Virus record (IMG/VR): IMGVR_UViG_3300017991_000122
Span: 1-59,694 of that record
DNA: 59,694 bases
Direction: 5' to 3' (one strand)
From: a virus
Lineage: Duplodnaviria > Caudoviricetes
Shown here: positions 1,309 through 13,020 of the stretch, one piece after another
Numbering within the stretch: the first letter of the stretch is position 1
Layout of the letters: the number at the start of each line of letters is the position of its first letter
Made by a program: the position numbers and the translations under genes
Notes under the pieces: model-generated
The model's input: only the letters and a program-made list of their open reading frames with translations
The model's database searches: none
What the model was told of the DNA's origin: nothing

Positions 1309-1817
1309 CAGGCCCCTACGAATTGCTTCCAGATGTCGGGCGCGGCCTCGGGCAGACGCAGCGGCTCGAGAGGAAGACTGTTCGGGCGCCTCGGTACGCA
1401 GTGCAGGGTCATGCCGGCTTGGTCGGGCGTGCGGCCGTCCTTCTTGGAGTTGCACGCCTTGCAAGCCATCACGATGTTCGTCCACGTCGTCAGACCTCCC
1501 TGACACTTCGGGATGACGTGGTCGTACGTGAGCTTCGACAGCGGCAGCTTCCTCAAGCAGTACTGGCAGCGGTGTCCGTCACGAGCCGCGACGTTCGTCC
1601 GCGAGAACTTGATGCCCTTCTTCGCCGCGCCGAACGGTTTGCGCACGCGAATCACGGCGGGAAGATCCATTTCCACGCTTGGGCTTCGGACCGACTGGCC
1701 CGGATACCCCGCGAGCTGCTCGAACTTCCCCGTGTAGATGCCCGTTATCGCCTCCGTCCACGGGATGATCTGGATCGGCATGTACCAGCTCGTCAGCACC
1801 AGTGTTCTCGCTTCCAT
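1308..1817 (-). CDS. HNH endonuclease (McrA-like)
   Basis: FSRTNVAARDGHRCQYC...LTYDHVIPKCQGG...NIVMACKACNSKK. Confidence 0.92.
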   Translation of the reverse strand: MEARTLVLTSWYMPIQIIPWTEAITGIYTGKFEQLAGYPGQSVRSPSVEMDLPAVIRVRKPFGAAKKGIKFSRTNVAARDGHRCQYCLRKLPLSKLTYDHVIPKCQGGLTTWTNIVMACKACNSKKDGRTPDQAGMTLHCVPRRPNSLPLEPLRLPEAAPDIWKQFVGA

Positions 1818-2058
1818 GACCTACCTCCGTCTCTTCTTTCTCATGATGTTTCTCCTCGAACACGACCCGGCCGTCTACGACGGGCCGTACCTTCAGACGC
1901 TCTCTCCAACGATGATCTGACGGGTAGGGGTGCAGCAAGTCCCTCATCAGGAAATCTGCTTCGTCCTCCGTCTCCACCACGATGCACAGGTAGCGCCGAC
2001 GCAGTTCCATGTCTGCGACGGTCCATCCGTTCTTCCTCTTCACGCGCTTCGTGGTCAT
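1579..2058 (-). CDS. Hypothetical protein (3' part overlaps HNH gene)
   Basis: ATG immediately after the tRNA-Leu 3' end; MTTKRVKRKNGW... Confidence 0.5.
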   Translation of the reverse strand: MTTKRVKRKNGWTVADMELRRRYLCIVVETEDEADFLMRDLLHPYPSDHRWRERLKVRPVVDGRVVFEEKHHEKEETEVGHGSENTGADELVHADPDHPVDGGDNGHLHGEVRAARGVSGPVGPKPKRGNGSSRRDSRAQTVRRGEEGHQVLADERRGS

Positions 2059-2061
2059 GGG

Positions 2062-2135
2062 TGCTCGGGGCGAGATTCGAACTCGCACTGGACGGGTTCT
2101 AAACCCGCTGCCGCTGCCAGTTGGGCTACCCGAGC
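2062..2135 (-). tRNA. tRNA-Leu(TAG), short variable arm
   Basis: Cloverleaf; anticodon arm GCGGG-TTTAGAA-CCCGT; T-loop TTCGAAT. Confidence 0.85.
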
Positions 2136-2366
2136 CTACTTCAAACTGATGGGCTTGTGACGCTCGCCGGGAGGAATCGTCTTGGCTTCCGACGTCACGT
2201 GCACCGTGAGCTTCACCTGGACCCCTTCAGGCGTCCGCACGAGGACAGTCTGGCTTCCTCGAGGGCGTGCCGCACAGAGCAGGTTCTGGAGCTTCGCGGC
2301 GATGTGCCCGTCCAGGTAGACGTGGACCTCGTCACTCTTCTCCCTCACTTCGATCAGCTTGTTCAT
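2136..2366 (-). CDS. Hypothetical protein
   Basis: MNKLIEVREK...; ATG shares the A of the upstream tRNA CCA; stop abuts the next tRNA. Confidence 0.65.
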   Translation of the reverse strand: MNKLIEVREKSDEVHVYLDGHIAAKLQNLLCAARPRGSQTVLVRTPEGVQVKLTVHVTSEAKTIPPGERHKPISLK

Positions 2367-2453
2367 GGTGCGCGGAGAGGGAGTCGAACCCTCACAGGGA
2401 CTATGCCCCACTTGGCCCTCAACCAAGCGTGTCTACCATTCCACCACCCGCGC
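2366..2453 (-). tRNA. tRNA-Leu(GAG)
   Basis: CTTGG-TTGAGGG-CCAAG, long variable arm, encoded CCA. Confidence 0.92.
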
Positions 2454-2458
2454 GTGGG

Positions 2459-2542
2459 TGCTCAGAGCGGGACTCGAACCCGCACAGCCACAAGGGCCAC
2501 CAGTTCCTGAGACTGGCGTGTCTACCATTCCACCACCTGAGC
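2459..2542 (-). tRNA. tRNA-Leu(CAG)
   Basis: CCAGT-CTCAGGA-ACTGG, long variable arm. Confidence 0.92.
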
Positions 2543-2546
2543 TCAG

Positions 2547-2620
2547 TGCCAACGGAGGGATTCGAACCCTCACTTGACCGCGTTTGAAACGGCTACCTCT
2601 GCCAGTTGGGCTACGTTGGC
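2547..2620 (-). tRNA. tRNA-Leu(CAA), short variable arm
   Basis: GCCGT-TTCAAAC-GCGGT. Confidence 0.85.
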
Positions 2621-3133
2621 TCATCTCGCAATTCTCAAGTCGTCGAGCTCCGCGATGACCTCGGCGTCTATCTCCTCGCTCATCTTCTCGGCGAGCGACT
2701 TCGTGATCTCCTGCTCGACGCTGGGCATCGTGTTCTCGATGCACTCCAGCACGGCAAGCGTCTCCTTGGCGATCTGCTCTCGGAGCTCGCGTGAAGGGTT
2801 GCCGCAGTACTCGAACTCGATGCGCAGCACCTTCGGGTTGGCGTCGATGCTTTCCTTGTGGACAACCCGCCAGCTCTTCTCGAACTCCTCTCGGGAGCAG
2901 CCCATCTTCTGGACTTCCCCGTCCGTGAGCAGCACGAGAAGGTTGCCTTGCTCGACCGCCGTCACCCGCAGGGGGATGAACTCGGTCTCGGTCTCGTGGC
3001 CGGCCGGGACAGCGAAGACGATGTCGCCGGGACAGACGCTGGAGACGGGAGCCTCCTTCATGTGCATCACCGTCCGAGACTTGTCTTGGATGGTGTGCCA
3101 CCGAGGGAACCGGACTAGTCGGAGACGATTCAT
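2621..3133 (-). CDS. Hypothetical protein
   Basis: MNRLRLVRFPRW...; ATGA coupling with the upstream ORF; TGA abuts the tRNA 5' end. Confidence 0.75.
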   Translation of the reverse strand: MNRLRLVRFPRWHTIQDKSRTVMHMKEAPVSSVCPGDIVFAVPAGHETETEFIPLRVTAVEQGNLLVLLTDGEVQKMGCSREEFEKSWRVVHKESIDANPKVLRIEFEYCGNPSRELREQIAKETLAVLECIENTMPSVEQEITKSLAEKMSEEIDAEVIAELDDLRIAR

Positions 3134-3477
3134 TTCAACCCCAGCACGGCCTTGTCTTCGTCCGTGAGCTTCGCGAGCGCTTCCAACCGCTTGGTGGCCC
3201 ACTTGTTAGCGTCCTGCCAGGACTCGACCTTGATGGGCTTGCTGCTCTGGGTCTGATCGAGCAGGTAGTGAACGAGGTCGAGCCCCTCGTCGTCGGCGAG
3301 CTCGAGGCAAAGCACCTTGCGGTCCGTGATGTGAACCTCGCCTCCCATCCCCGTGAGAATCATCGCGACGTTCTCGGCCACCGCCCGATCCGTGTAGAAC
3401 CTGGTCTGCGCTGCGCCCTTGAGCACGACAGCCGTCTGGTAAACCGGGAAGATCGTACAGTTCCACGCTTTTCTCAT
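3130..3477 (-). CDS. Hypothetical protein
   Basis: MRKAWNCTIFPVY...; ATG overlaps the CCA of tRNA-Val. Confidence 0.75.
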   Translation of the reverse strand: MRKAWNCTIFPVYQTAVVLKGAAQTRFYTDRAVAENVAMILTGMGGEVHITDRKVLCLELADDEGLDLVHYLLDQTQSSKPIKVESWQDANKWATKRLEALAKLTDEDKAVLGLK

Positions 3478-3551
3478 GGTGCGCCTCGTGGGAATCGAAC
3501 CCACCTCTGCGTCCTCGTCATGGACGTGCCCTCCCAGAAGGCTAGAGGCGC
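3477..3551 (-). tRNA. tRNA-Val(GAC)
   Basis: CGTCC-ATGACGA-GGACG, encoded CCA; atypical A32. Confidence 0.85.
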
Positions 3552-3784
3552 CGAATCAAAACCTTCCGCGCGTCGTCTGGAATGCGACCGCCCTTCTCGA
3601 TCTTTCGCAGGACTTCGAACGCGAGCTTCTTGTTCTCGTCCGTGTCGATGATGGCGACCATGTCCCCCGACTTGCCGTTGCGCGGGCCGCGCAGTTCGAA
3701 GTCGAACCGCACATCCTCTTCCGACAGCAGTTCGTAGTCGTGCTCCTCGAGCAGAAGGTGCCCGTTGTGGCTCACCATGATCAT
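3542..3784 (-). CDS. Hypothetical protein (leaderless)
   Basis: MIMVSHNGHLLLEE...; ATG 7 nt after a -10 box. Confidence 0.7.
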   Translation of the reverse strand: MIMVSHNGHLLLEEHDYELLSEEDVRFDFELRGPRNGKSGDMVAIIDTDENKKLAFEVLRKIEKGGRIPDDARKVLIRRL

Positions 3785-3791
3785 GCTCGGC

Positions 3792-3820
3792 AACGTAACA
3801 GCTACCGGAGGGATTGTCAA
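3792..3820 (-). promoter_or_regulatory. Sigma70-type promoter
   Basis: TTGACA-17-TACGTT with TG extension. Confidence 0.75.
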
Positions 3821-3821
3821 G

Positions 3822-3892
3822 TAGGGGTGCCCGGAATCGAACCGGGCCTAGACGCATATAAGACGTCCTGATCCGACCAGAACCACACCCCC
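3822..3892 (-). tRNA. tRNA-Ile(TAT)
   Basis: GACGT-CTTATAT-GCGTC; acceptor GGGGGTG/CACCCCT. Confidence 0.8.
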
Positions 3893-3900
3893 AGACGCAC

Positions 3901-3935
3901 GAAAACCCTGGCTCCGTCTCGGGGGTCAGGGTCTC
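3901..3935 (-). terminator. Intrinsic terminator-like hairpin before tRNA-Ile(TAT)
   Basis: GAGACCCTG...CAGGGTTTTC. Confidence 0.6.
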
Positions 3936-3939
3936 GCTA

Positions 3940-4049
3940 TGTCCTGGTCACTGGCCCGCAAACCCGAAAGCCTGCGAACCCTGGCCCCTTCTGCTCCTTT
4001 TGAGAGCCGGGAACCACCCACCCTGTTCGGGTTGGGGTTTCCAAAGACA
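3940..4049 (-). ncRNA. Structured leader or ncRNA of unknown class
   Basis: Closing stem TGTCTTTGG/CCAGGACA plus three hairpins, lying between a promoter and a terminator. Confidence 0.55.
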
Positions 4050-4055
4050 GGGAGG

Positions 4056-4083
4056 ACTCTACTCAGCCCACGCGAACCGTCAA
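4056..4083 (-). promoter_or_regulatory. Sigma70-type promoter
   Basis: TTGACG-16-TAGAGT, T-rich upstream. Confidence 0.6.
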
Positions 4084-4099
4084 GAAAAATCGTACGCGG

Positions 4100-4172
4100 T
4101 GCACGCGGAGGGATTCGAACCCACACTTTGCCGGGTTTAGGCCGGTCGCCTCTGCCGTTGGGCTACGCGCGC
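4100..4172 (-). tRNA. tRNA-Leu(TAA), short variable arm, C33
   Basis: CCGG-CCTAAAC-CCGG; D-arm like the other short Leu tRNAs. Confidence 0.75.
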
Positions 4173-4777
4173 AGCAGCTTGCCGAGGTCTTCCTCGAGCT
4201 TCTCGACCGTCATCGCCTCGAGCTTGCCCTCTGCGGACTCGTAACGGGCCCCTAAGCGCGGCAACGCGAAGCGGACGACGAATCGGTCGTCTTCCTCGTC
4301 ACCGGCCCACAGGACGGCTTCTGCGACCGTCCAGGTGATGGGCTGCTCGAGCTCGAACTTCGGAGGTTGCTCGCCGCCTCCCACCGGGGCGTACGAGAGC
4401 GTGACGTGCGGGTTGTAGTCGGGGAACTTCTTGGAGAACGCCGCGCCGGCCGCGTCGAGGGCCTCGGCGAGTTTGCCACGGAGCTCGTGTAGTTCGTCGC
4501 TCCGCACCTTGCCGATGACCGGGACCTGACCAGGCTTCCAGTCGGGGTTCTCGGGGAAGGAGTCGACCTCGGCAACCGCGACCGGGAACGGCGCCGTGCT
4601 CTGGAAGACCGGAGCTATTGCTTCGATCGCCTTGCACACCTCGCCGATCGGGATCTTGTCGCCGAAGTACACGAGCGTGATGTGGTGCGAACCCTTGCCG
4701 ACCGGGTCGCCGGGAACCTCGACATCGCTCAGGAGCTGTCGGATCTCACGGGGGACTGAGATACCTAGAAACGCCAT
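4163..4777 (-). CDS. 2H phosphoesterase (RNA 2',3'-cyclic phosphodiesterase, LigT/ThpR- or Acb1-like)
   Basis: Two HxT motifs: HHITLVYFG and YNPHVTLSY. Confidence 0.9.
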   Translation of the reverse strand: MAFLGISVPREIRQLLSDVEVPGDPVGKGSHHITLVYFGDKIPIGEVCKAIEAIAPVFQSTAPFPVAVAEVDSFPENPDWKPGQVPVIGKVRSDELHELRGKLAEALDAAGAAFSKKFPDYNPHVTLSYAPVGGGEQPPKFELEQPITWTVAEAVLWAGDEEDDRFVVRFALPRLGARYESAEGKLEAMTVEKLEEDLGKLLRA

Positions 4778-4780
4778 GCT

Positions 4781-4999
4781 TCACCTCTTCGGTGCGCGCT
4801 CGGGGGATCGAACCCCGCTCTCCCGCCTTGTAAGGACGGCGCCGTCACCAGACGACCCAACGCGCTCGAGCTCGTCGGAGTAGTGCTGCTCGAGCCGGTC
4901 GCGGGTAGAGTCAAACTCCGTCCAGTCCCCGGTGAGCACCGCCTTCCGGAAGGCGTCCTCGAGGTCGGACAACACGACAGCAGCTTGCGGGCAGGCCAT
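4781..4999 (-). CDS. Small hypothetical protein whose 3' half reads through tRNA-Val(TAC)
   Basis: SD GAGGA, then MACPQAAVVLSDLEDAFRK... Confidence 0.5.
   Translation of the reverse strand: MACPQAAVVLSDLEDAFRKAVLTGDWTEFDSTRDRLEQHYSDELERVGSSGDGAVLTRRESGVRSPERAPKR
4793..4865 (-). tRNA. tRNA-Val(TAC)
   Basis: CCGTC-CTTACAA-GGCGG. Confidence 0.85.
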
Positions 5000-5049
5000 A
5001 ATTCCTCTTTGGCATTCGCACCCCTTCCCCATGGAGGGGAGCATACCAG

Positions 5050-5121
5050 TCGGAGCAGCGGGAATCGAACCCGCCAACGCCTGTTCCCGAAACAGGGGGC
5101 CCACCTTGAGCCTTCACTCCG
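5050..5121 (-). tRNA. tRNA-Pro(CGG)
   Basis: CCTGT-TTCGGGA-ACAGG. Confidence 0.85.
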
Positions 5122-5126
5122 TAGAA

Positions 5127-5233
5127 AGCGAGGATGATAGCGACCAAGAGAGCTTCCGGACTCGAACCGGCTAGGCATGTTTTGATGACACGCAGTGAAC
5201 CAATCACGATGAACTCCTGATCTACGCCTCGCT
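5127..5233 (-). ncRNA. Y-RNA-like RNA 1 (D, anticodon and T arms; shared stem replaces the acceptor stem)
   Basis: GCGAGGCGTAGATCAGG...CTTGGTCGCTATCATCCTCGC enclosing GTGA/TCAC, GCGTGT-CATCAAA-ACATGC and CCGG-TTCGAGT-CCGG. Confidence 0.75.
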
Positions 5234-5310
5234 TGGAACCGGGACTGGGATTCGAACCCAGACAGTGCCAGCTTCAAAGGCTGGTGACCTACCAATTGGT
5301 CGACCCCGGC
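5234..5310 (-). tRNA. tRNA-Gln(TTG)
   Basis: CCAGC-CTTTGAA-GCTGG, CCA. Confidence 0.9.
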
Positions 5311-5313
5311 AGA

Positions 5314-5448
5314 CGACGAGGATGATGACGCACAAGGTTCCTTGTACCGCGTCCTGACCACTAGACGATCCCGCTTCATAGCGGGAGGAGGATTTGAACC
5401 TCCGTTTCGGGCTTGCAATGCGAAGTAGCCCTGCACTACGCCTCGTCG
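5314..5448 (-). ncRNA. Y-RNA-like RNA 2 (YrlA-type: T-arm, closed acceptor stem, D-arm)
   Basis: Shared stem enclosing GGAGG-TTCAAAT-CCTCC, TCCCGCT-ATGA-AGCGGGA and GTC-TAGTGGTCAG-GAC. Confidence 0.8.
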
Positions 5449-5449
5449 G

Positions 5450-5518
5450 TGGCAGCAGAGGGACACGAACCCTCGCGGTCGCGGATATGAGCCGCGCCTC
5501 CCACCTTGGGATGCTGCC
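5450..5518 (-). tRNA. tRNA-Met(CAT), shortened D-arm (Ile2 not excluded)
   Basis: CGCGG-CTCATAT-CCGCG; T-loop TTCGTGT. Confidence 0.7.
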
Positions 5519-5520
5519 GG

Positions 5521-5596
5521 ATGCGGGAGCAGGATTTGAACCTGCGGTCTCGAGATTATGAAACTCGCGAGGACGACCAGACTCCTCCACCCCGCT
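5521..5596 (-). tRNA. tRNA-Met(CAT), initiator-like
   Basis: 1:72 mismatch, GCGGGGTGGAG 5' end, TTCAAAT T-loop, loop TTCATAA. Confidence 0.8.
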
Positions 5597-5601
5597 ATGA
5601 G

Positions 5602-5673
5602 CGTCCTTCCCCGGAGTCGAACCGGGAACACAACCTTCGGAGGGTTGCATGATCTCCATTTCACCAGAAGGAC
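5602..5673 (-). tRNA. tRNA-Arg(CCG)
   Basis: CAACC-CTCCGAA-GGTTG. Confidence 0.88.
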
Positions 5674-5852
5674 TTGAACCGCCTGCATTGCAGGACGGAT
5701 CGTTTCGACCAATGCCACTGACCGGTGCGCCCACAGCGAGCACACTTCGACCGCCATGTTCTCGGATCCGAGATGCCTCGGAGCATCGCCCAGACGACTC
5801 CTCGGACGTCGCCCAGGGGTCGGCCGTGCTCGTGCGGTTCTGACGTTCTCAT
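5661..5852 (-). CDS. Small hypothetical protein (CxxC)
   Basis: ATG directly after the CCA of tRNA-Arg(ACG). Confidence 0.5.
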   Translation of the reverse strand: MRTSEPHEHGRPLGDVRGVVWAMLRGISDPRTWRSKCARCGRTGQWHWSKRSVLQCRRFKSFW

Positions 5853-5927
5853 TGGCAGCCCTCCCAGGATTCGAACCCGGATTCCGTGATCCGTAGTCAC
5901 GTGTGATGTCCATTTCACTAGAGGGCC
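5853..5927 (-). tRNA. tRNA-Arg(ACG)
   Basis: CGTGA-CTACGGA-TCACG, CCA. Confidence 0.9.
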
Positions 5928-5931
5928 TCGG

Positions 5932-6001
5932 CATCCCCGGCAGGACTCGAACCTGCAAGGATCGGTTTAGAAGACCGACTGCCGTCCATCGGCACGGGGA
6001 C
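5932..6001 (-). tRNA. tRNA-Arg(TCT)
   Basis: TCGGT-CTTCTAA-ACCGA. Confidence 0.85.
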
Positions 6002-6385
6002 TCAGACCTTGCCTTTGGCTAGGTCCCGCATGACTTCCCGCACCAGTGTGGGGTCGACCTTGAGGGCCTCCGCGATTTCGAACGCGGAGATGCCTGGGTC
6101 GGCCTTGGCGAGGTAGTCGGTCAGTCGCTTGCGTAGTTGCTCGTTGATGGGCGCCGAGCCCTTCACGACCGGGTCAGAGCCCGCCACGGAGGTGGCAGCA
6201 GGGGGAGGCGTGCCGACCAGGTCGCTCAGGAGCTGCGTGTGTTGGACCACGAGGGGGCGCAGCTTCTCCTCGAGCGCGGCGATTTCCTTGTCGAGCTCCT
6301 CCCTCTCGGCTTTCTTCTTCTTGAGCTCGCCGCCGAGCTCCACGAGTTGAGATCCTATTGCGAGAAGGTCTGCCGCTTCTTCCAT
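6002..6385 (-). CDS. Coiled-coil plus C-terminal HTH-like protein
   Basis: ELKKKKAEREELDKEIAALEEKL...ISAFEIAEALKVDPTLVREVMRDL. Confidence 0.75.
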   Translation of the reverse strand: MEEAADLLAIGSQLVELGGELKKKKAEREELDKEIAALEEKLRPLVVQHTQLLSDLVGTPPPAATSVAGSDPVVKGSAPINEQLRKRLTDYLAKADPGISAFEIAEALKVDPTLVREVMRDLAKGKV

Positions 6386-6388
6386 CGG

Positions 6389-6462
6389 TGCTCCCAGCGG
6401 GACTCGAACCCGCACCTTGGCCTTGAGAGGGCCACCACCTATCCGGTTAGTCAGATGGGAGC
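6389..6462 (-). tRNA. tRNA-Glu(CTC)
   Basis: TGGCC-CTCTCAA-GGCCA. Confidence 0.85.
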
Positions 6463-6488
6463 ATAACCAGTGCTGTTGTGATTGTCAA
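6460..6488 (-). promoter_or_regulatory. Sigma70-type promoter overlapping the tRNA-Glu 5' end
   Basis: TTGACA-17-TATGCT. Confidence 0.7.
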
Positions 6489-6492
6489 GCAG

Positions 6493-6563
6493 AGCCACCG
6501 CCCGGAGTCGAACCGGGACCACCGGAGTACAAAACCGGCACTCTGCCTCAGAGCTACGGTGGC
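6493..6563 (-). tRNA. tRNA-Thr(TGT)
   Basis: Loop TTTGTAC; acceptor GCCACCG/CGGTGGC. Confidence 0.85.
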
Positions 6564-6605
6564 AGACGAGGCACCTCGATCCACCGAGGCAGAACGGGGC
6601 CTCAG

Positions 6606-6678
6606 AGGCGCGACCGGGAATCGAACCCGGCAGTACCCGTTTTGCAGACGGGGGCCTTTCCCAGTTGGCTATCGCGCC
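6606..6678 (-). tRNA. tRNA-Cys(GCA)
   Basis: CCCGT-CTGCAAA-ACGGG, U73. Confidence 0.9.
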
Positions 6679-6881
6679 AGAAGATTCTTGGTGCTCGGGT
6701 ATTCGAACCCGCCAGGCTTGAAGCTGGGGTCCGTCTCGTGCAGATGCTTCTTGCACCTGATCTTCATCAGGATGAGCTGCCCGTGCTTGAAGTCGAACAG
6801 GTGCCCGTCGACCCAGCCGAGGCGTTGCACCTTCGGCACGGGGACTTCCTTCCCACACACGTCGCACGGGCTCGTGGACAT
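6669..6881 (-). CDS. Small Zn-binding hypothetical protein (leaderless)
   Basis: MSTSPCDVCGK...CKKH. Confidence 0.65.
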   Translation of the reverse strand: MSTSPCDVCGKEVPVPKVQRLGWVDGHLFDFKHGQLILMKIRCKKHLHETDPSFKPGGFEYPSTKNLLAR

Positions 6882-6889
6882 GCTAGCGA

Positions 6890-6918
6890 GCCTTATCAAC
6901 TGTCGTCGCGCTTGTCAA
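6890..6918 (-). promoter_or_regulatory. Sigma70-type promoter
   Basis: TTGACA-17-TAAGGC. Confidence 0.55.
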
Positions 6919-6936
6919 GCACTTTCGATTCAATAG

Positions 6937-7008
6937 AGCGGGCAGTGGGAATCGAACCCACCGAGACCGCGTTGGCAACGCGGCGTCCCACCTTGGAACA
7001 TTGCCCGC
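6937..7008 (-). tRNA. tRNA-Gly(GCC)
   Basis: CCGCG-TTGCCAA-CGCGG. Confidence 0.88.
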
Positions 7009-7009
7009 A

Positions 7010-7082
7010 TGGAGCAGACGCCGGGAATCGAACCCGGCCCGGTAGGTTGGAAGCCTACTTGCCCTCCTTGGACATCGCCTGC
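7010..7082 (-). tRNA. tRNA-Gly(TCC)
   Basis: GTAGG-CTTCCAA-CCTAC, CCA. Confidence 0.88.
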
Positions 7083-7084
7083 AA

Positions 7085-7158
7085 TGGAGCCACTGCCGAG
7101 AATCGAACTCGGACCTCACCCGTACCGGGGGCGTGCTCCACCTTGGAGCTACAGTGGC
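7085..7158 (-). tRNA. tRNA-Thr(GGT), C33
   Basis: CGCCC-CCGGTAC-GGGTG, CCA. Confidence 0.82.
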
Positions 7159-7985
7159 TAGACTTTGAGGGGTTTCAGTTCGCGGAGTGTCGGAGTGGTC
7201 GGGGGCGTGCCGTACACGATGACCTCGGGCAGCACGATGACCTTCTCCTCGGGCTCGGGCACGGACGGCTGGCGGAAGACTTGGAGCGTGCCCTCGTGCG
7301 AGATGAGTTTTCCAAGCTCCGGGTCGGGACCGGCCGTCTCGACCTCGACGTAGTACTCCTCGCCGGTCTCGAGGTGCTCGACCTTGACCCACTTGCCCAT
7401 CAGGCGGCAGGTCTGGCTCGGGTCCTCGTGCTCGTCGTTGTGAGCTCCGCCGACCGTCTGCCAGCACTTGAGCATGGTGACCGACCAGTACACCGCGCTC
7501 GGGTGGATCCAGCCGTAGTTGTAGGCTTGGTGGATACCGAACTTGAGCTGCTCGGGATGGGCCAGCTTGTTGACCAGGACCCAGCTCTTGCCCACCGTGT
7601 TGATGAGCATCCCGTCCTCGTAGTTTTCGACCTTCGCGAGCTCCGCATCGACGAGCTCCGAGTGCCGGGTGTCGGTCGAGACCGCGCAGATGTTGCCGTC
7701 GATCTGCGTGATGGGCTTGATGGTCACCTCGGCCTGCCTCGCGATGAGGTCTTCGACCAGGGGCGTCGTGCACATGCAGCCGAGCAGGTCGGCGATCTGC
7801 TGCGCCTCGACGGAGGTGACCATGACGCGGACCTGGACGGCCTCGCCCGTGTCCGGTTCGACGTGAACGATCTTCAGAGCGTCCGAGAAGACGCTGAAGG
7901 TCATCCTGATCCCGTCCTTCTCGTTGATGATCTCGGACCAGGTGAAGTTGGCTAGCCCGTTCTTGACAGCTTCGACGACGTCCAT
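7158..7985 (-). CDS. Uncharacterised protein, possible cell-wall enzyme domain
   Basis: GKSWVL...NYGWIH...WQTVGGAHNDEHEDPSQTCRL; I recall a similar domain fused to peptidoglycan-binding repeats in myxobacteria (unverified). Confidence 0.6.
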   Translation of the reverse strand: MDVVEAVKNGLANFTWSEIINEKDGIRMTFSVFSDALKIVHVEPDTGEAVQVRVMVTSVEAQQIADLLGCMCTTPLVEDLIARQAEVTIKPITQIDGNICAVSTDTRHSELVDAELAKVENYEDGMLINTVGKSWVLVNKLAHPEQLKFGIHQAYNYGWIHPSAVYWSVTMLKCWQTVGGAHNDEHEDPSQTCRLMGKWVKVEHLETGEEYYVEVETAGPDPELGKLISHEGTLQVFRQPSVPEPEEKVIVLPEVIVYGTPPTTPTLRELKPLKV

Positions 7986-8002
7986 GCGCACCATCCTATC
8001 AG

Positions 8003-8073
8003 TGGAAGTGAAGGGAGTCGAACCCTCATCCCTGCGGTGCAAGCGCAGTGCTCTCCCGTTGAGCTACACCCCC
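8003..8073 (-). tRNA. tRNA-Ala(TGC)
   Basis: CTGCG-CTTGCAC-CGCAG, G3:U70. Confidence 0.9.
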
Positions 8074-8078
8074 AGTAC

Positions 8079-8169
8079 CCGACGAGACGGCCTTCTTCCG
8101 TGTCCGGCCAAGGAAATGAAAGGACACCTGGTGTTCTACCACCACGCCCGTGCATGACGGCCTCGTCAG
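8079..8169 (-). ncRNA. Structured ~90-nt RNA between two tRNA-Ala genes
   Basis: Terminal stem CTGACGAG/CTCGTCGG; hairpins TGGTG/CACCA and GTGTCC/GGACAC. Confidence 0.5.
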
Positions 8170-8171
8170 AG

Positions 8172-8245
8172 TGGAATCGACGGGACTCGAACCCGCAGCC
8201 CCTTGCCTGCCAGGCAAGCGCTCTCCCGAATTGAGCTACGACCCC
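8172..8245 (-). tRNA. tRNA-Ala(GGC)
   Basis: CTTGC-CTGGCAG-GCAAG. Confidence 0.9.
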
Positions 8246-8535
8246 TTGTTCATCGCGTGTCTCACGGCGTCCACGTTGTGCTGGGACATCTCTGGATCGA
8301 TGTCGGCGACGGTGCGCTGTCCGATGCTGACAGCACCTCCCTCGAGCTGCTCGAGGCTGATCTCCTTGGTCAAGGCTTGGACCTTGCCGTCGACTTCGAC
8401 GAAGTCTGGGAGCTCGGCCTCGATGACGAAGATCTTGGCGCCTGGCTTGGTCTTGGCGTAGCCGACTGGCGGCGTCGTCGAGAGGTACGGCCGGTCGGCG
8501 CCGGGCTCGAGGATCACGTAGATGTCAATGCGCAT
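8236..8535 (-). CDS. Hypothetical protein
   Basis: SD GGAGG, then MRIDIYVILEPG. Confidence 0.75.
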   Translation of the reverse strand: MRIDIYVILEPGADRPYLSTTPPVGYAKTKPGAKIFVIEAELPDFVEVDGKVQALTKEISLEQLEGGAVSIGQRTVADIDPEMSQHNVDAVRHAMNKGS

Positions 8536-8548
8536 GTCTATGCCTCCG

Positions 8549-8623
8549 TGGTGGAATCGAGGGGAGTCGAACCCCTACTACTGCCGTGCGAGGGCAGTGT
8601 GCTCCCATTATCACTACGACCCC
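8549..8623 (-). tRNA. tRNA-Ala(CGC)
   Basis: CTGCC-CTCGCAC-GGCAG, CCA. Confidence 0.9.
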
Positions 8624-8624
8624 A

Positions 8625-8699
8625 TGGTGGTACCGCCGAGAGTCGAACTCGGACGCTCCGCTTATCAGGCGGAACAGGGTAACCGATCCGTCCGGTACC
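8625..8699 (-). tRNA. tRNA-Ile(GAT), atypical D-arm
   Basis: TCCGC-CTGATAA-GCGGA, CCA. Confidence 0.8.
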
Positions 8700-8700
8700 G

Positions 8701-8928
8701 TCATTCGACGATGTACCAGCATCCGCCCACGGCGTAGATGAACCCGTGAAGGCTCAACCACTTCAGCCGTCGTCGAATGATCCTGGTGTGCTCTCTCGAG
8801 CGCGCATTTCGGTGAGGCCACGTTCGAAACACGGTCCACTGAAGCTCGTGGTAGCTCAAGGTGCCGGGCCACCGCTCAAGCTCTTGAAGAATCCAGTCGT
8901 CGATCTGATCTTCTGACGCCATGCGCAT
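8701..8928 (-). CDS. Small protein, possibly winged-helix
   Basis: SD AGGAGG; IRRRLKWLSLHGFIYAVGGCWY. Confidence 0.65.
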   Translation of the reverse strand: MRMASEDQIDDWILQELERWPGTLSYHELQWTVFRTWPHRNARSREHTRIIRRRLKWLSLHGFIYAVGGCWYIVE

Positions 8929-8941
8929 CGTCGCCTCCTAG

Positions 8942-9013
8942 CAGGAGATGGGAGAATCGAACTCCCCAGACGGTCGGTTTTGGAGACCAACCCGCTTACC
9001 CAGAGCCTCTCCC
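8942..9013 (-). tRNA. tRNA-Trp(CCA), atypical
   Basis: TTGGT-CTCCAAA-ACCGA; T-arm GGGAG-TTCGATT-CTCCC. Confidence 0.75.
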
Positions 9014-9181
9014 ATGCTTCTCCTTCGTGTGCTCGAGGTAGCAGTAGATGCACACGTACGTGTCGCACCACCGGCAGACCCAAGCCTCGTTCTCGGCGAC
9101 GACCTCGCTCCTCACCGGGGGCTTCACCATCCGGATTTGCCGATCGCAGTTCGGGCAGTGGAAGAGGTCTTCGTCGAACAT
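8996..9181 (-). CDS. Zinc-finger protein
   Basis: CPNC, CRWC, CIYC, HxxxxH; ATG overlaps a CCA. Confidence 0.7.
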   Translation of the reverse strand: MFDEDLFHCPNCDRQIRMVKPPVRSEVVAENEAWVCRWCDTYVCIYCYLEHTKEKHGRGSG

Positions 9182-9257
9182 GGCCCCGCATACGGGAATC
9201 GAACCCGTCAACATCCGAGAGACAGTCGGACAGCCTACCCAGCAGCTTCATGCGGGA
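9181..9257 (-). tRNA. tRNA-Asp(GTC)
   Basis: TCCGA-CTGTCTC-TCGGA, G73-CCA. Confidence 0.82.
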
Positions 9258-9333
9258 TGGTGTCCCTGGCAGGACTCGAACCTGCACCCGTCGGCTTAGG
9301 AAGCCGCTGCACGATCCATTGTGCTACAGGGAC
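9258..9333 (-). tRNA. tRNA-Arg(CCT)
   Basis: CGGC-TTCCTAA-GCCG, CCA. Confidence 0.88.
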
Positions 9334-9335
9334 GC

Positions 9336-9590
9336 CTACAGACCGATCGCCAAGAGCTTCGTGTAGTACTCGGGGTCTTCGACGAGGTGGTCCATCGCAA
9401 TCTCCATCGCCATGCGAGGGTCGTGCGTGTGCTCCATCTCGGTCGCTGTCCCCAGTGCGAGCTGCTCGGGGTCGAAGTCGGAGGGCTTGCGCCCCTCGGC
9501 CTCCCCGCCCGGAATGATCTCGCCTCCGAACTCCCCCGCCACAACGGCGACGGTGTTCTGCTCTAGCAATCGACGCATCCTGCCGTTCAT
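9336..9590 (-). CDS. DUF5661-like protein
   Basis: GTATEMEHTHD...AMEIAMDHLVEDPEYYTKL. Confidence 0.75.
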   Translation of the reverse strand: MNGRMRRLLEQNTVAVVAGEFGGEIIPGGEAEGRKPSDFDPEQLALGTATEMEHTHDPRMAMEIAMDHLVEDPEYYTKLLAIGL

Positions 9591-9608
9591 GACGACAGGA
9601 TAACATAG

Positions 9609-9680
9609 TCGGGGCGACAGGAATCGAACCTGCGTTGTCTCGGACCCAAACCGAGTGGACCACCATTATCCAACGCCCCG
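9609..9680 (-). tRNA. tRNA-Pro(TGG)
   Basis: CTCGG-TTTGGGT-CCGAG. Confidence 0.88.
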
Positions 9681-9685
9681 GAGGT

Positions 9686-9711
9686 GAAACGCGACCACGT
9701 GGTCGCGTTTC
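9686..9711. repeat. Perfect 26-bp palindrome
   Basis: GAAACGCGACCACGTGGTCGCGTTTC; core recurs at 49143-49158. Confidence 0.9.
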
Positions 9712-9721
9712 GGAAAGGATG

Positions 9722-11323
9722 TCACGGCTTCGGCGCCGTCTCGAGGTCCAGCGACTTCACGTGGTCGGCCAGGGACGTCCATCCCTGCGACGCGAGCGCG
9801 ATGAAGTTGAGGATCTGATCCGACCAACCGGACACGCAGTAGACGTTCTTGTCGTCAGGCGCCATGAGCGCGTGCCCATGAGGCGAGACGTCGATGACGA
9901 AGACCTTCGCCTTGCGGGACAAGGCTACGCGGTACTCCTGAAGGGCCTGCGCGAAGGGCCGACCCATGTTCTGCTCACCGTCAGTCAGCAGGACGACGTT
10001 GTCCACCTTCTCGTTGTCCACACGGAGGATGTCGAGAGCAGCGGACTGGTTGGTACCGCCGCGCGGGTGGACGTGGACTCCCCAGAACTTCTGCGCCTGC
10101 GTGAGCAGGGAGTCGCGCTGGGAGATGCTGATTCGCTTGGCCGAGCCGTCGAAGGCGACGACGTCGCACTTGGCCTTCTTGGCGACCGCGACCGAAAGCA
10201 CGGAAGCCGGGCCGATGAGCGCTCGGGCCGCGTCTGCCGGGGAGGGCGTGTGGTGGAACCAACCCATGCCCGGCTGCATGCTCGGCGAGACGTCGAGCAG
10301 CACGGCGGTCTTGCCTGGGATCTCGGGCACGTTGTCGAACGCGAGCTCGACAGCGTCACGGAGGGCGTCCTTGACCCACGTCGCGGTGACGTGCTTCTCC
10401 GCTTCGATGAACCGAAAAGGCAGGATCTTGGACCGCTGGATGATCTGCGGCGAGGTGAGCTTCCGGAGAACCTCTTCCTTGCACGACTCGATGACCCCTT
10501 GCCGCTCGAGCGTCGCCAGGTTCTTGAGCAGTGCGAAGATCGGAAGGTTCGGCACGAGGGCCTCCCACAGCTTCTTCGAACTCCCGATGAACGGGGTGAC
10601 GACCTCGTGAGGGAGCCGCCCGATCTTGATGGCAGCGATCTTCTCCTCGTCGGTCTTGGCCTTCTTGAGGGCCTCGAACTGCTGAATCTGAGGCAGCGTC
10701 GAGATGTCCACCTTCCGCTTCTCCGACTCACCCATGATGTAGTCGAACAGCGGGCGCGGCTCGCCCGTCTTCGGGTGCACGAGCTGCATGGTGTCGCGAA
10801 GCGTGTAGGAGCCAGCCTTGCGCTCGGTGCCGTACTTGATCGTCCAGTACTCGCTCAGCTTCTCCGTCATCCAGGCGCCGATGACCCGCTTGACCCTACG
10901 GCCTCCGATCGATCCATTCGCCAGAGACGCGTGGATGGTCATGAAGTCGTTCAGGTCGTTGGGCGTGCGGATGACCTCACCGAACGCCTGCGCGAACGCA
11001 AGGCGTGCCTCGGGCCTGGAATCCCTCGCGAGGCATGCGAGCCCGTAGGCCGGCTGCGAGCGCATGTAGCCCTTGTTGCGGGCGAACACGAGCCCCTTCG
11101 CGTAGAACGCGGGGTCGGCCTTGAGCATCTCGGCGTGCACTTCCTTCGTCTGCTCGAGCATGTCGCTCTGCTTCAGGTAGAAGGTGTTGCCGAGCGTGTT
11201 GGTCAGGGTCACCTGAATGAAGCGCTCCGGAAGAGGCAGCGTCCATGCGGGCATCCCGTGGAAGTTCTTGGTGTCTGCCGAACTCGTCGGCGTGCGTCCG
11301 AAAAGGTTCTGTACTCTCGTCAT
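9722..11323 (-). CDS. rsr: Ro60/Rsr-like TROVE-domain RNA-binding protein with vWA domain
   Basis: N-terminal NFHGMPAW..NTFY, KYG..LRDTMQLVHPK, LPIFALLKNLATL, SKILPFRF; vWA DVSPSM, GGTN, LTDGEQN. Confidence 0.9.
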   Translation of the reverse strand: MTRVQNLFGRTPTSSADTKNFHGMPAWTLPLPERFIQVTLTNTLGNTFYLKQSDMLEQTKEVHAEMLKADPAFYAKGLVFARNKGYMRSQPAYGLACLARDSRPEARLAFAQAFGEVIRTPNDLNDFMTIHASLANGSIGGRRVKRVIGAWMTEKLSEYWTIKYGTERKAGSYTLRDTMQLVHPKTGEPRPLFDYIMGESEKRKVDISTLPQIQQFEALKKAKTDEEKIAAIKIGRLPHEVVTPFIGSSKKLWEALVPNLPIFALLKNLATLERQGVIESCKEEVLRKLTSPQIIQRSKILPFRFIEAEKHVTATWVKDALRDAVELAFDNVPEIPGKTAVLLDVSPSMQPGMGWFHHTPSPADAARALIGPASVLSVAVAKKAKCDVVAFDGSAKRISISQRDSLLTQAQKFWGVHVHPRGGTNQSAALDILRVDNEKVDNVVLLTDGEQNMGRPFAQALQEYRVALSRKAKVFVIDVSPHGHALMAPDDKNVYCVSGWSDQILNFIALASQGWTSLADHVKSLDLETAPKP

Positions 11324-11358
11324 GATCCACCTCCCGTTGGTGGGGCTGAAGAAACGAA

Positions 11359-11488
11359 CGCGAGGATGATGGCGACCAAAGCCGTTTTCCCCATTGCGTG
11401 GGGTGCCTGTACCACTCGGCTACTCATGCAGTTTTGGCGCGTGAGATTGGATTCGAACCAACGAAGTAGCTCTGATCTACGCCTCGCG
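11359..11488 (-). ncRNA. Y-RNA-like RNA 3 (T-arm, acceptor with GCCA in loop, D-arm, anticodon arm; joined at the variable loop)
   Basis: Shared stem enclosing TTGG-TTCGAAT-CCAA, CTCACGC-GCCAAAACT-GCATGAG, GCC-GAGTGGTACA-GGC and CCCC-ACGCAAT-GGGG. Confidence 0.8.
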
Positions 11489-11563
11489 TGGAGGGGGAGA
11501 CGGGATTCGAACCCGCAGTGGCGGAGTTAACAGCTCCGTGCTCGACCGTTGAGCTTCTCCCCC
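11489..11563 (-). tRNA. tRNA-Asn(GTT)
   Basis: CGGAG-CTGTTAA-CTCCG, CCA. Confidence 0.88.
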
Positions 11564-11567
11564 GAAA

Positions 11568-11726
11568 GAGATGAGGATGATGGGCGACAAGGGACCATGC
11601 TTTTTAGCTACAGGCCCGTGAAGAAGCCGGCTTGCGCCAGCGGTGGGCCCGGTTGGAGTCGAACCAACAATCTACGATTTTCACTCGTTGCTTTTACCGA
11701 AGTACCCCTATCTAACGCCTCATCTC
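11568..11726 (-). ncRNA. Y-RNA-like RNA 4 (tRNA permuted in the D-loop)
   Basis: Shared stem enclosing GGTAAAAGC, ACGA-GTGAAAA-TCGT, GTTGG-TTCGACT-CCAAC, CGGGCCC..GGGCCTG and TAGCT. Confidence 0.78.
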
Positions 11727-11728
11727 AG

Positions 11729-11801
11729 GGTGACTGACGGGACTCGAACCCGCACGTACCTGGACCACAACCAGGCGCCCTACCTTTAGGCTACAGCCAC
11801 C
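11729..11801 (-). tRNA. tRNA-His(GTG)
   Basis: CCTGG-TTGTGGT-CCAGG, G-1:C73. Confidence 0.9.
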
Positions 11802-11806
11802 ATAGT

Positions 11807-11874
11807 GCGAGGATGAGAGCGACCAAGGGAAGGTTCGTGATTGTTGTACGATGTACCCCTGATCTTCGCCTCGC
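11807..11874 (-). ncRNA. Y-RNA-like RNA 5 (minimal, no tRNA module)
   Basis: GCGAGGCGAAGATCAGGGGTACATCG...CCCTTGGTCGCTCTCATCCTCGC. Confidence 0.75.
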
Positions 11875-11876
11875 GG

Positions 11877-11948
11877 CGGGCCGGGCGGGAGTCGAACCCA
11901 CATAGGCGGATTTTCAATCCGCTGCCGTTCCACGTTGGCTACCGACCC
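11877..11948 (-). tRNA. tRNA-Phe(GAA)
   Basis: GCGGA-TTGAAAA-TCCGC. Confidence 0.88.
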
Positions 11949-11987
11949 AGCGTCTAGGACGCTCGGGTGTCCTGTCTTCTGACAACC

Positions 11988-12287
11988 TCAGCCGATTTCG
12001 TCGGCTTCCCTCTTCTGCGTGAAGAAGTAGAGCCCGTCTTCACCACCACGACGCGTGATGGTCAGGGTCTGGCCGCGCCACCTGAAGGGCCCGTTGCCCA
12101 GTCTCGTGGCGATCTCCTTCACCTTGTCCGAGCGGGCCTTCTTGGCCTTCTCGGCTGCGTCTGTCGCCTCGTTGTAGTCCTCGGTGGACTGCTCGTAGGC
12201 TTCGAACATGGCTTTCTTCTGCGTGGGCGTCATGCCGTTCCCACCATTGCTTCCGCTGTCCGTGCTCTGGCTATCGTCTTTCGCCAT
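11988..12287 (-). CDS. Hypothetical protein
   Basis: MAKDDSQ...; ATG overlaps the CCA of tRNA-Glu. Confidence 0.75.
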   Translation of the reverse strand: MAKDDSQSTDSGSNGGNGMTPTQKKAMFEAYEQSTEDYNEATDAAEKAKKARSDKVKEIATRLGNGPFRWRGQTLTITRRGGEDGLYFFTQKREADEIG

Positions 12288-12362
12288 GGTGCTCCCAAGG
12301 GGATTCGAACCCCTACCTGCGGCTTGAAAGGCCGCCCACCTGACCCTTAGTTAGATGGGAGC
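12287..12362 (-). tRNA. tRNA-Glu(TTC)
   Basis: GCGGC-CTTTCAA-GCCGC, CCA. Confidence 0.88.
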
Positions 12363-12387
12363 ATAACAACTGAGGTTTGATTGTCAA
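12360..12387 (-). promoter_or_regulatory. Sigma70-type promoter overlapping the tRNA-Glu 5' end
   Basis: TTGACA-16-TATGCT with TG extension. Confidence 0.7.
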
Positions 12388-12445
12388 GAGAAAATCGTCG
12401 CCGGCCGTGCAAGGTCACCAGGACGGCTCTGGTAGCGTCGGAGAC

Positions 12446-12700
12446 ATGACACGACCACTGACCCTGCAAGACATCCTGCGACGCCGTGAGCACCCCTTGA
12501 CGTGCGACTGTGAGCGATGTTCTCGAGTAGACGAGCTCGTCGCTCAGACCGTCGAGGTCTTGAGCCCGCGACCGGAATCGAACCGGCTACCTCCGCAGTA
12601 CGAAAGCGGCGTCCTGCCATTAGGACTGCACGGGCAATTGCACGCGGAACCCGACGAGGCAGGTCGAGCTCCACGCGCGCCTCGGAAGAGGACGAACTGA
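12446..12700 (+). CDS. Possible small antisense ORF (HxxxCxCxxC)
   Basis: GGAGAC-ATG, MTRPLTLQDILRRREHPLTCDCERC; 3' half is antisense to tRNA-Thr. Confidence 0.35.
   Translation: MTRPLTLQDILRRREHPLTCDCERCSRVDELVAQTVEVLSPRPESNRLPPQYESGVLPLGLHGQLHAEPDEAGRAPRAPRKRTN
12563..12635 (-). tRNA. tRNA-Thr(CGT)
   Basis: Loop TTCGTAC; acceptor GCCCGTG/CGCGGGC. Confidence 0.85.
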
Positions 12701-12820
12701 TCTGCATCACGCACCGTGTACGCACCCTGTCGATTGGTCACGTGAGCTTTTCCAGCGAGCTGGTGAGCAGCTCGTCCAGGTTCCGTTGGGTTGTCACAGA
12801 CCGTGTCGCATTGCGCGTGC
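12640..12820 (-). ncRNA. ~180-nt rod-shaped RNA, 6S-like candidate
   Basis: GCACGCG/CGCGTGC closing stem, central bubble, GGACGAGCTG/CAGTTCGTCC inner stem. Confidence 0.45.
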
Positions 12821-12826
12821 GACGGT

Positions 12827-12900: not shown

Positions 12901-12946
12901 TCTCCCTCGAGGGGACTCAAATGCATACCTTCATGATCTCTCCTAG

Positions 12947-13017: not shown

Positions 13018-13020
13018 GAG

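Follow-up and report, generated by a model that had tools for sequence, protein, structure and literature searches.

Do tRNA genes punctuate the messages of a phage? Open reading frames that begin at tRNA 3' ends and stop at tRNA 5' ends in a viral tRNA array

Can the tRNA genes of a bacterial virus punctuate its messages, as tRNAs reportedly do in animal mitochondrial transcripts, a case associated with Ojala and colleagues? The question is raised by the tRNA array of the IMG/VR virus record IMGVR_UViG_3300017991_000122 (Duplodnaviria; Caudoviricetes), which was analysed over a stretch of 59,694 nucleotides (nt), here called the window. The array, delimited with ARAGORN and Rfam, extends over positions 2060-13221 of the minus strand and comprises 38 tRNA genes, about 14 open reading frames (ORFs), five Y-like RNAs and a Ro60-like gene. 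All 38 tRNAs called by ARAGORN lie on the minus strand, and 28 of them pass the Rfam tRNA gathering score. An initial annotation of this DNA had proposed that ORFs start at tRNA 3' ends and stop at tRNA 5' ends, and that messages and non-coding RNAs are released by tRNA processing as in mitochondria. The analysis partly supports a punctuation of this type, although one that would carry a built-in competition between tRNA and message at several borders and would not be of the clean mitochondrial kind.

The discriminator base of each tRNA was placed via the pairing of its acceptor stem, and ORFs are referred to by the position of their start codon. At four junctions the A of an encoded CCA, tRNA position 76, is also the A of an ATG: 2366 (tRNA-Leu gag), 3477 (Val gac), 9181 (Asp gtc) and 12287 (Glu ttc). 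At 5852, 6385 and 2058 an ATG follows CCA, CCG and CCC, respectively, without any intervening nucleotide, so that the AUG occupies tRNA position 76 in four junctions and position 77 in three. All seven positions had been given correctly by the initial annotation. The reading frames that begin at these junctions, together with one coupled ORF, are as follows.

2136-2366, minus strand: ORF of 76 amino acids (aa); ATG on A76 of tRNA-Leu(gag), TAG abutting the 5' end of tRNA-Leu(tag); coding score +24.8.
3130-3477, minus strand: ORF of 115 aa; ATG on A76 of tRNA-Val(gac), ATGA overlap with the next ORF; coding score +57.0.
2621-3133, minus strand: ORF of 170 aa, coupled to ORF 3130-3477; TGA abutting the 5' end of tRNA-Leu(caa).
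8996-9181, minus strand: Cys-rich ORF of 61 aa; ATG on A76 of tRNA-Asp, end 20 nt into a tRNA-Trp-like gene.
11988-12287, minus strand: ORF of 99 aa; ATG on A76 of tRNA-Glu(ttc); coding score +43.5.
1579-2058, minus strand: frame with ATG right after the CCC of tRNA-Leu(tag); first 16 codons +8.1, whole frame -31.6.
6002-6385, minus strand: ORF of 127 aa from the ATG after the CCG of tRNA-Glu(ctc), or of 113 aa from GTG 6343; TGA abutting tRNA-Arg(tct).
5661-5852, minus strand: frame whose ATG directly adjoins the CCA of tRNA-Arg(acg); unlikely to be a gene.

This arrangement departs from chance. ATG is found at 10 of the 76 positions that lie at discriminator +3/+4, compared with a strand-wide frequency of 0.0097 per position (binomial P = 4e-9), and the background at offsets 13-60 is a mean of 0.65 ATG per offset. 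Among the 13 tRNAs that encode CCA, TG comes next in six, against P(TG|A) = 0.048 (P = 1.6e-5); two of these six (Gly tcc and Ile gat) run into the next tRNA and open no ORF.

Coding potential was scored with a codon model trained on 14 long minus-strand genes, whose G+C content at third codon positions (GC3) is 0.83. The model is positive for ORFs 2366, 3477, 6385, 9181 and 12287 and for most other inter-tRNA ORFs, and negative for 5852. When the codons between the junction ATG and the next possible start were scored by frame, the segment proved to be in frame at 2366, 3477, 9181, 12287 and 2058, and not at 6385 or 5852. The first six codons of ORF 2366 score +6.3 and the first 17 of ORF 3477 score +3.3, as against -16.5 and -9.4 in the other two frames of the latter; the N-terminal segments of 2366, 3477, 12287 and 2058 are strongly negative when scored out of frame. 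ORF 9181 displays a CPNC motif at residues 9-12, upstream of its next possible start, M18. The frame from 2058 is coding-like over some 80 initial codons and stays open for 159, running out of phase over the start of an HNH gene. In ORF 6385 the N-terminal 14 codons have a GC3 of 0.36 and a score of -4.2, and GTG 6343 may be the real start. ATG 5852 was rejected as a gene start, with scores of -16.6 for the whole ORF and -3.6 for the first 22 codons. Five of the seven abutting starts are credible (2366, 3477, 9181, 12287 and 2058), 6385 is ambiguous and 5852 is probably no gene.

These scores bear on the possibility that the abutting ATGs are unused, translation starting further down or the frames being non-genes, and that the pattern arises from a tendency of U to follow CCA, combined with the habits of gene callers. 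U follows CCA in eight of the 13 CCA-encoding tRNAs, tRNA-to-tRNA junctions included, and the non-coding 5852 and doubtful 6385 fit such an explanation, as does the lack of homologues for all junction ORFs tested: tblastn yielded no phage match for ORFs 3477, 12287 or 6385, a search for homologous proteins with ORF 12287 returned only itself, and HMMER with ORF 3477 returned itself and low-complexity repeat proteins only. Single-sequence AlphaFold2 models of ORFs 3477 and 2366 are also poor (mean predicted local distance difference test scores of 52 and 58) and uninformative. Unused starts are difficult to reconcile, however, with four N-terminal segments whose scores favour the coding frame and are strongly negative in the others, with the Cys motif of ORF 9181, and with a CCAUG ORF of another viral contig, L133 (see below), whose alignment to a Pfam family begins at its third residue. 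We regard unused ATGs as an improbable explanation.

The ORFs also end at tRNAs. Thirteen ORFs precede a tRNA, and in ten of them the stop lies between 2 nt before and 10 nt inside that tRNA. The gap is 0 at 2136, 2621 and 6002, 1 nt at 8701 and 2 nt at 9336; the TA|G at 7158 overlaps the tRNA by 1 nt; and at 3542, 4163, 6669 and 8236 the TAG is formed by tRNA nt 8-10. Every stop listed by the initial annotation is present, and 9336, missing from its list, adds a further case. The remaining three stops lie 20 nt inside the tRNA-Trp-like gene (ORF 9181) and 41 and 39 nt before a tRNA (the Ro-like gene and ORF 12287, respectively). Direct contact with a tRNA at either end is seen for ORF 2136-2366, for the pair 2621-3477 and for ORF 6002-6385, and other ORFs have it on one side only. 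The further ORFs of the array, some of which are led by a Shine-Dalgarno (SD) sequence, are listed here.

3542-3784, minus strand: ORF of 80 aa, predicted to be leaderless from promoter 3792-3820; stop TAG formed by nt 8-10 of tRNA-Val(gac); coding score +43.2.
4163-4777, minus strand: LigT / 2'-5' RNA ligase-like gene (PF13563, E = 1.7e-13) with its own SD (energy -10.1); stop TAG formed by nt 8-10 of tRNA-Leu(taa).
6669-6881, minus strand: ORF of 70 aa with a TTGACA box upstream (6913-6918); stop TAG formed by nt 8-10 of tRNA-Cys; coding score +20.0.
7158-7985, minus strand: SD-led ORF of 275 aa (SD energy -10.9 at ATG 7985); stop TA|G sharing G1 of tRNA-Thr(ggt).
8236-8535, minus strand: ORF of 99 aa, SD starting 1 nt past the CCA of tRNA-Ala(cgc) (energy -9.5); stop TAG formed by nt 8-10 of tRNA-Ala(ggc).
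8701-8928, minus strand: SD-led ORF of 75 aa (SD energy -10.6); TGA 1 nt ahead of tRNA-Ile(gat); coding score weak, -3.0.
9336-9590, minus strand: ORF of 84 aa (77 aa from TTG 9569); TAG 2 nt ahead of tRNA-Arg(cct).
9722-11323, minus strand: Ro60-like (TROVE) gene, with about 24% identity by tblastn to phage genes annotated as 'Ro-like RNA binding protein'.

Non-coding elements are bordered in the same manner. Five Y-like modules lie between tRNAs or next to the Ro60-like gene.

5311-5447, minus strand: Y-like RNA between tRNA-Met and tRNA-Gln(ttg); fold z = -4.27, common end motifs.
5122-5233, minus strand: Y-like RNA between tRNA-Gln(ttg) and tRNA-Pro(cgg); identified by fold and end motifs.
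11801-11874, minus strand: short Y-like RNA between tRNA-Phe and tRNA-His, with GGCGAAG; fold z = -4.05, end motifs.
11564-11727, minus strand: Y-like RNA between tRNA-His and tRNA-Asn; identified by fold and end motifs.
About 11340-11488, minus strand: Y-like RNA between tRNA-Asn and the Ro60-like gene; identified by fold and end motifs.

All five share an invariant 5' GAGGCG and 3' UCAUCCUC, and in all five a terminal stem closed by the two ends of the module is predicted. Three are positioned no more than 600 nt upstream of the Ro-like gene 9722-11323 and the other two at 5122-5447. The initial annotation had stated that Y-like RNAs begin at tRNA 3' ends, and each indeed starts 0-3 nt past tRNA position 76; four end 4-6 nt ahead of the next tRNA and the fifth just upstream of the Ro-like gene. 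The Ro-binding motif of YrlA is given in PMC4201824 as GNCGAAN0-1G, carried by a stem that the paired 5' and 3' ends close. One of the five modules carries the exact GGCGAAG and the other four have the one-base variants GGCGUAG or GGCGUUAG. No module was matched by the Rfam YrlA model at E values up to 5, the sole YrlA row (25.2 bits) falling over tRNA-Lys genes. Release by tRNA processing is the simplest reading of the Y-like RNAs.

How would these ORFs and RNAs be transcribed? A promoter family composed of TTGACA, a spacer of 16-17 nt and TANNNT, mostly with TGT ahead, has seven members on the minus strand of the window and none on the plus strand. The 12-kb array is interrupted by five to six promoter-like sites or more, and five promoters in the array or at its head are the following.

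13450-13477, minus strand: promoter TTGACA-16-TATGGT, at the head of the array.
12360-12387, minus strand: promoter TTGACA-16-TATGCT; -10 box over nt 1-3 of tRNA-Glu(ttc).
6460-6488, minus strand: promoter TTGACA-17-TATGCT; -10 box over nt 1-3 of tRNA-Glu(ctc).
4056-4083, minus strand: promoter TTGACG-16-TAGAGT, just past tRNA-Leu(taa).
3792-3820, minus strand: promoter TTGACA-17-TACGTT; ATG 3784 seven nt past the -10 box.

Since most junctions leave no room for a promoter and terminator-like sites occur at chance level (9 vs 9.7 in shuffles), the ORFs and Y-like RNAs would be co-transcribed with the tRNAs, and co-transcription in turn would oblige tRNA maturation to cut at the borders of ORFs and Y-like RNAs. 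At three of the seven family promoters an ATG is located 6-7 nt past the -10 box (3784, 16029 and 13442; SD energies of +0.5, +0.7 and -5.1, respectively), a geometry that predicts leaderless messages; ATG 3784 opens a frame with a good coding signal, 16029 one with a moderate signal and 13442 one with none. Actinobacteria have promoter-derived leaderless mRNAs, which these three sites resemble in their ATG 6-7 nt past a TANNNT -10 box and in lacking an SD. For the junction ORFs, unlike such mRNAs, it is cleavage that would create the 5' AUG, and the message would have a monophosphate at its 5' end.

The starts in the array fall into three classes. The first is SD-led (11323, 8928, 8535, 7985 and 4777), with energies of the duplex with the anti-SD of -9.5 to -14.8 and an SD placed 1-3 nt past a tRNA. 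The second is promoter-led, ORF 3784 being the strongly coding case. The third comprises the tRNA-abutting starts, at which the SD is weak or missing: +0.4 at 2366, where there is none, -2.2 at 2058, -4.5 at 9181, -5.9 at 3477 and -6.5 at 12287, where the GGGAG of the acceptor strand ends 4 nt ahead of the ATG. A comparison set of 14 SD-led structural genes spans -6.5 to -11.7, and standalone genes elsewhere in the window have strong SDs of the TAGGAG type.

The reading that we prefer, while granting it slightly less than an even chance, is that cleavage at the 3' end of the upstream tRNA places the AUG of the abutting ORFs at or close to the message terminus and that these ORFs are then translated as leaderless messages. 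A few strong sigma-70-type promoters would yield long transcripts through tRNAs, Y-like RNAs and small ORFs, and host enzymes would cut these at the tRNA borders, RNase P at 5' ends and RNase E, RNase Z or exonucleases at 3' ends, thereby freeing the Y-like RNAs and splitting the message into pieces. In four to six ORFs with AUG at position 76 or 77, the AUG would be left at, or 1-3 nt from, a 5'-monophosphate end, and translation would proceed in the leaderless style, a mode that the phage apparently possesses at its own promoters. At a CCAUG junction both products could derive from one transcript only if the cut fell before A76 and a CCA-adding enzyme repaired the tRNA; otherwise tRNA maturation and translation would compete for a single A, a point on which the reasoning of the initial annotation is logically sound. 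With a purine as discriminator and U77 at each of them, the four CCAUG junctions fit RN|CNU, a mycobacterial RNase E motif reported in PMC10641625, with a cut before C75; such a cut would leave a one-base leader on the message and a tRNA for repair by the CCA-adding enzyme. At the downstream border RNase P would end the message right behind the stop in three to six ORFs, and messages that stop at 2136, 2621, 6002, 8701 and 9336 would remain complete after RNase P and 3' cleavage. In four to five ORFs the enzyme would cut ahead of the stop, so that translation would be needed before the downstream tRNA is excised. The analysis establishes the layout of the junctions, its departure from chance, the coding signal, the promoter geometry and the Y-like folds; co-transcription, cleavage and leaderless translation are deduced.

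Several features of the array may be the outcome of compaction only, spacer loss having pushed ORFs onto tRNAs, with proteins made from unprocessed RNA and tRNA processing destroying the messages. Initiation would then rely on SD-like runs in the 3' strand of the acceptor stem or, after tRNA-Glu, on shortened transcripts. Judging from the spacing at other promoters, transcription from the tRNA-Glu promoters would start at about tRNA nt 11, and the product, lacking the 5' acceptor strand, could not form a tRNA and would leave the acceptor GGGAG, 4-5 nt before the ATG, unpaired. These internal promoters mean that ORFs 12287 and 6385 would be expressible without processing; their boxes are kept in both paralogues despite differing spacers between the boxes. 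Compaction is also consistent with the presence of an SD-like run in the acceptor 3' strand of four of the seven abutting tRNAs, as compared with one of the 31 others (Fisher P = 0.002, for a motif chosen post hoc), and with ORFs 4777 and 8535, which are SD-led and start 12-13 nt past a tRNA, as near as an SD allows. Stops inside tRNAs are useful on uncut RNA only, ORF ends 0-1 nt ahead of the next tRNA are common in two other viral contigs as well (L093 and L145), and the arrangement is comparable to the ATGA overlaps between phage genes, the limit of a CCA/ATG overlap being 1 nt. Nevertheless, ORFs 2366, 9181 and 2058 have no SD-like run, and uncut RNA would hold the acceptor strand in a 7-bp stem and place a folded tRNA 5' of the AUG, presumably a poor site for the 30S subunit. 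Genes of the window that stand alone, moreover, have the strong SDs mentioned above. Compaction only is on the unlikely side.

A different fate of the same transcripts would be that the tRNA stays attached, a chimera of tRNA and mRNA cut by RNase P persisting with the folded tRNA as its protective 5' structure. An encoded CCA is said to hinder RNase Z, and CCA is encoded at five of the seven abutting junctions as compared with eight of the 31 other tRNAs (Fisher P = 0.03). Such a chimera would have no means of SD-less initiation right behind a folded tRNA, however; the contig L093 has CUAUG and no CCA; and chimeric tRNAs would be unchargeable, yet they include the only Asp and Val(gac) genes of the array. 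We therefore consider persistent attachment very doubtful.

Cleavage followed by leaderless translation also faces contrary evidence. ORFs 3784, 4777, 6881 and 8535 stop at tRNA nt 8-10 and ORF 9181 stops 20 nt inside a tRNA-like gene, and RNase P would strip these stops from the message. With AUG at position 76 or 77, one type of cut cannot give a perfect 5' AUG everywhere, and a cut after A76 would destroy the AUG at CCAUG junctions. The internal promoters imply that the array is not one transcript and would provide ORFs 12287 and 6385 with an alternative route of expression, and the acceptor-strand SD-like runs are a further point against the cleavage reading. No N-terminus is confirmed by homology, the tested junction ORFs (3477, 6385 and 12287) being without homologues. 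To these are added two results from other phages that are given below, the lack of a +3/+4 ATG peak in five named actinophage and myxophage arrays and the lack of a general CCATG enrichment. The proposal of release by tRNA processing as in mitochondria is partly supported, by the missing promoter room at most junctions, terminators at chance level and a leaderless geometry elsewhere, and is weakened by the stops inside tRNAs, the internal promoters, the variable AUG position and the SD-like runs at four of seven junctions.

The array shares with mitochondrial punctuation coding regions that are flanked by tRNAs without spacer, excised messages that would be leaderless, and, at 7158, a TA|G stop that RNase P would leave incomplete. 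It differs in having several internal promoters and many SD-bearing ORFs, in the four to five ORFs that need the first 10-20 nt of the next tRNA for their stop, and in an AUG that overlaps the encoded CCA, which mitochondrial tRNA genes are not known to contain. In E. coli, the tufB and secG-leuU operons give tRNA-mRNA co-transcripts that are separated by RNase P and RNase E, but these contain spacers and normal SD-led starts and are not known to share nucleotides between tRNA and ORF. In a further known arrangement, tRNA-shaped elements fix the precise ends of an intervening RNA, a feature that the array has in common with it; in the array, however, the punctuating elements are 38 complete tRNA genes, anticodons included, and messages would be among the RNAs set free.

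The window itself is a single piece of 59.7 kb with 62% G+C, in which the minus strand holds nearly all genes, including those for tail sheath and baseplate. The nearest sequenced phages are Streptomyces phages (about 34% identity across the tail sheath), and the Ro60-like gene has about 24% identity to Ro-like genes of actinophages; we infer that the window comes from an uncultured myovirus that infects an actinobacterium. Two contigs, of which the longer has 119,649 bases, encode the protein of ORF 12287, so the window is probably a portion of a larger genome. No phage sequence was matched by Megablast with 2000-12400 as query, and the Ro-like protein as query found relatives neither in viral contigs nor in metagenome contigs. 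The 15-mer common to both tRNA-Glu promoter junctions had 43 matches in viral contigs, all by chance and none in a tRNA context, and contigs of four DNA runs contained the same phage at low depth and unrelated tRNA matches, with no informative variation.

The arrays of the actinophages Myrna, Nappy and Sham (PMC4201824) resemble that of the window in combining a large tRNA array with a Ro-like gene, RNA-repair genes, HNH endonucleases and small inter-tRNA ORFs; protein identity is about 24-34%. The arrays of these phages encode only 0-3 CCA ends each and, unlike the window, have no ATG peak at +3/+4. Over the 180 tRNAs of Myrna, Nappy, Sham, LuckySocke, BRock and Mx1, ATG occurs at +3/+4 12 times against about 6.4 expected, which is no clear enrichment, and twice against about 1.5 expected when an ORF of at least 50 codons is required. 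In curated annotation, four coding sequences of Sham and one of Myrna start 0-3 nt past a tRNA. U immediately precedes the 5' end of just 15 of the 38 tRNAs of the window (39%), compared with 63-87% in these actinophage arrays (Myrna 23/29, LuckySocke 26/30, BRock 23/29); in the window, ORF stops stand where this U would usually be. C occupies position 74 in 37 of the 38 tRNAs of the window and likewise in Sham (30/30), LuckySocke (30/30), BRock (29/29), Nappy (27/27) and Myrna (29/29), though few of these tRNAs encode CCA, and in only 18 of 35 in Mx1. The prevalence of C74 may be linked to a preference of actinobacterial RNase E for cleaving before C.

Similar junctions are found outside this group. 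A pattern search of IMG/VR for CCATG behind a T arm returned at least 120 loci, which, being found by the pattern, are ascertained examples. The contig L133 (39% G+C) has six CCAUG ORFs of 45-166 aa, several of which end 9-15 nt inside the next tRNA; one of them aligns to Metallophos_2 with its residue 3 at profile position 4 (E = 7e-5, below Pfam's cut-off). L093 (32% G+C) displays CUAUG at four tRNAs, with stops 0-5 nt ahead of the next tRNA, and L145, L164 and L064 provide further cases. L133 (1-13995), L093 (1-4942) and L145 are unrelated viral contigs of low G+C, whose ORFs start at A76 in CCAUG or CUAUG and stop at or inside the next tRNA. The initial annotation had proposed counting CCA-ATG junctions in related phages against expectation. 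With one index tRNA dropped per locus, 19 of 314 free CCA tRNAs among the matches listed have CCATG, against 20.2 expected, and a general enrichment of CCATG in phage tRNAs was accordingly rejected. Where a tRNA is followed by an ATG-initiated ORF of at least 60 codons, offset 0 is the commonest single offset among the matches listed (10/89, from five loci). The tRNA-abutting style is real and recurs in unrelated phages, and it is not general. Among the papers listed in a literature search, none was seen to describe tRNA punctuation, or an AUG overlapping CCA, in a phage.

A broader proposal would be that a subset of phages of very different G+C content takes the cleavage of tRNA 3' ends by the host as its start signal. 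If an encoded CCA (or CUA) were cut before A76, a leaderless message starting with that A would result while a CCA-adding enzyme would restore the tRNA, both arising from one transcript without a ribosome-binding site, and the balance of processing and translation would set the levels of small proteins. Such a generalization is speculative and, at present, unlikely. If cleavage and leaderless translation do operate, the array would represent a bacterial-virus counterpart of mitochondrial tRNA punctuation and a novel origin of leaderless mRNAs, would account for the expression of SD-less small genes in phage tRNA arrays, and would link tRNA supply mechanically to the expression of small array genes. 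The matter has a bearing on phage annotation, in which starts touching tRNAs are often avoided, and the coding sequences 0-3 nt past tRNAs in Sham, a cultured Streptomyces phage, make the idea testable at the bench.

Some further features of the locus deserve mention. The HNH endonuclease gene (1308-1817) is SD-led and has homologues in other tRNA arrays (47% identity in L061 and 38% in L064); in tblastn of 15 array ORFs against all fetched loci it was the sole match. The LigT-like phosphoesterase 4163-4777, within the array, also matches the anti-CBASS Acb1 family weakly. In the tRNA-Trp(cca) call at 8941-9015 the acceptor stem is poor, and the one model that the call matches is tRNA-Sec, at a weak 33.8 bits. 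ORF 9181 ends within this call, and the SD of ORF 8928 comes directly after it. ATG 5015 was dropped as a gene start (34 aa, score -21.4). Between tRNAs, the stretches 12636-12826, 12388-12561, 5674-5852, 4866-5048 and 3893-4049, the last of which sits behind promoter 4056-4083, contain neither a credible ORF nor a Y motif and may be further small RNAs.

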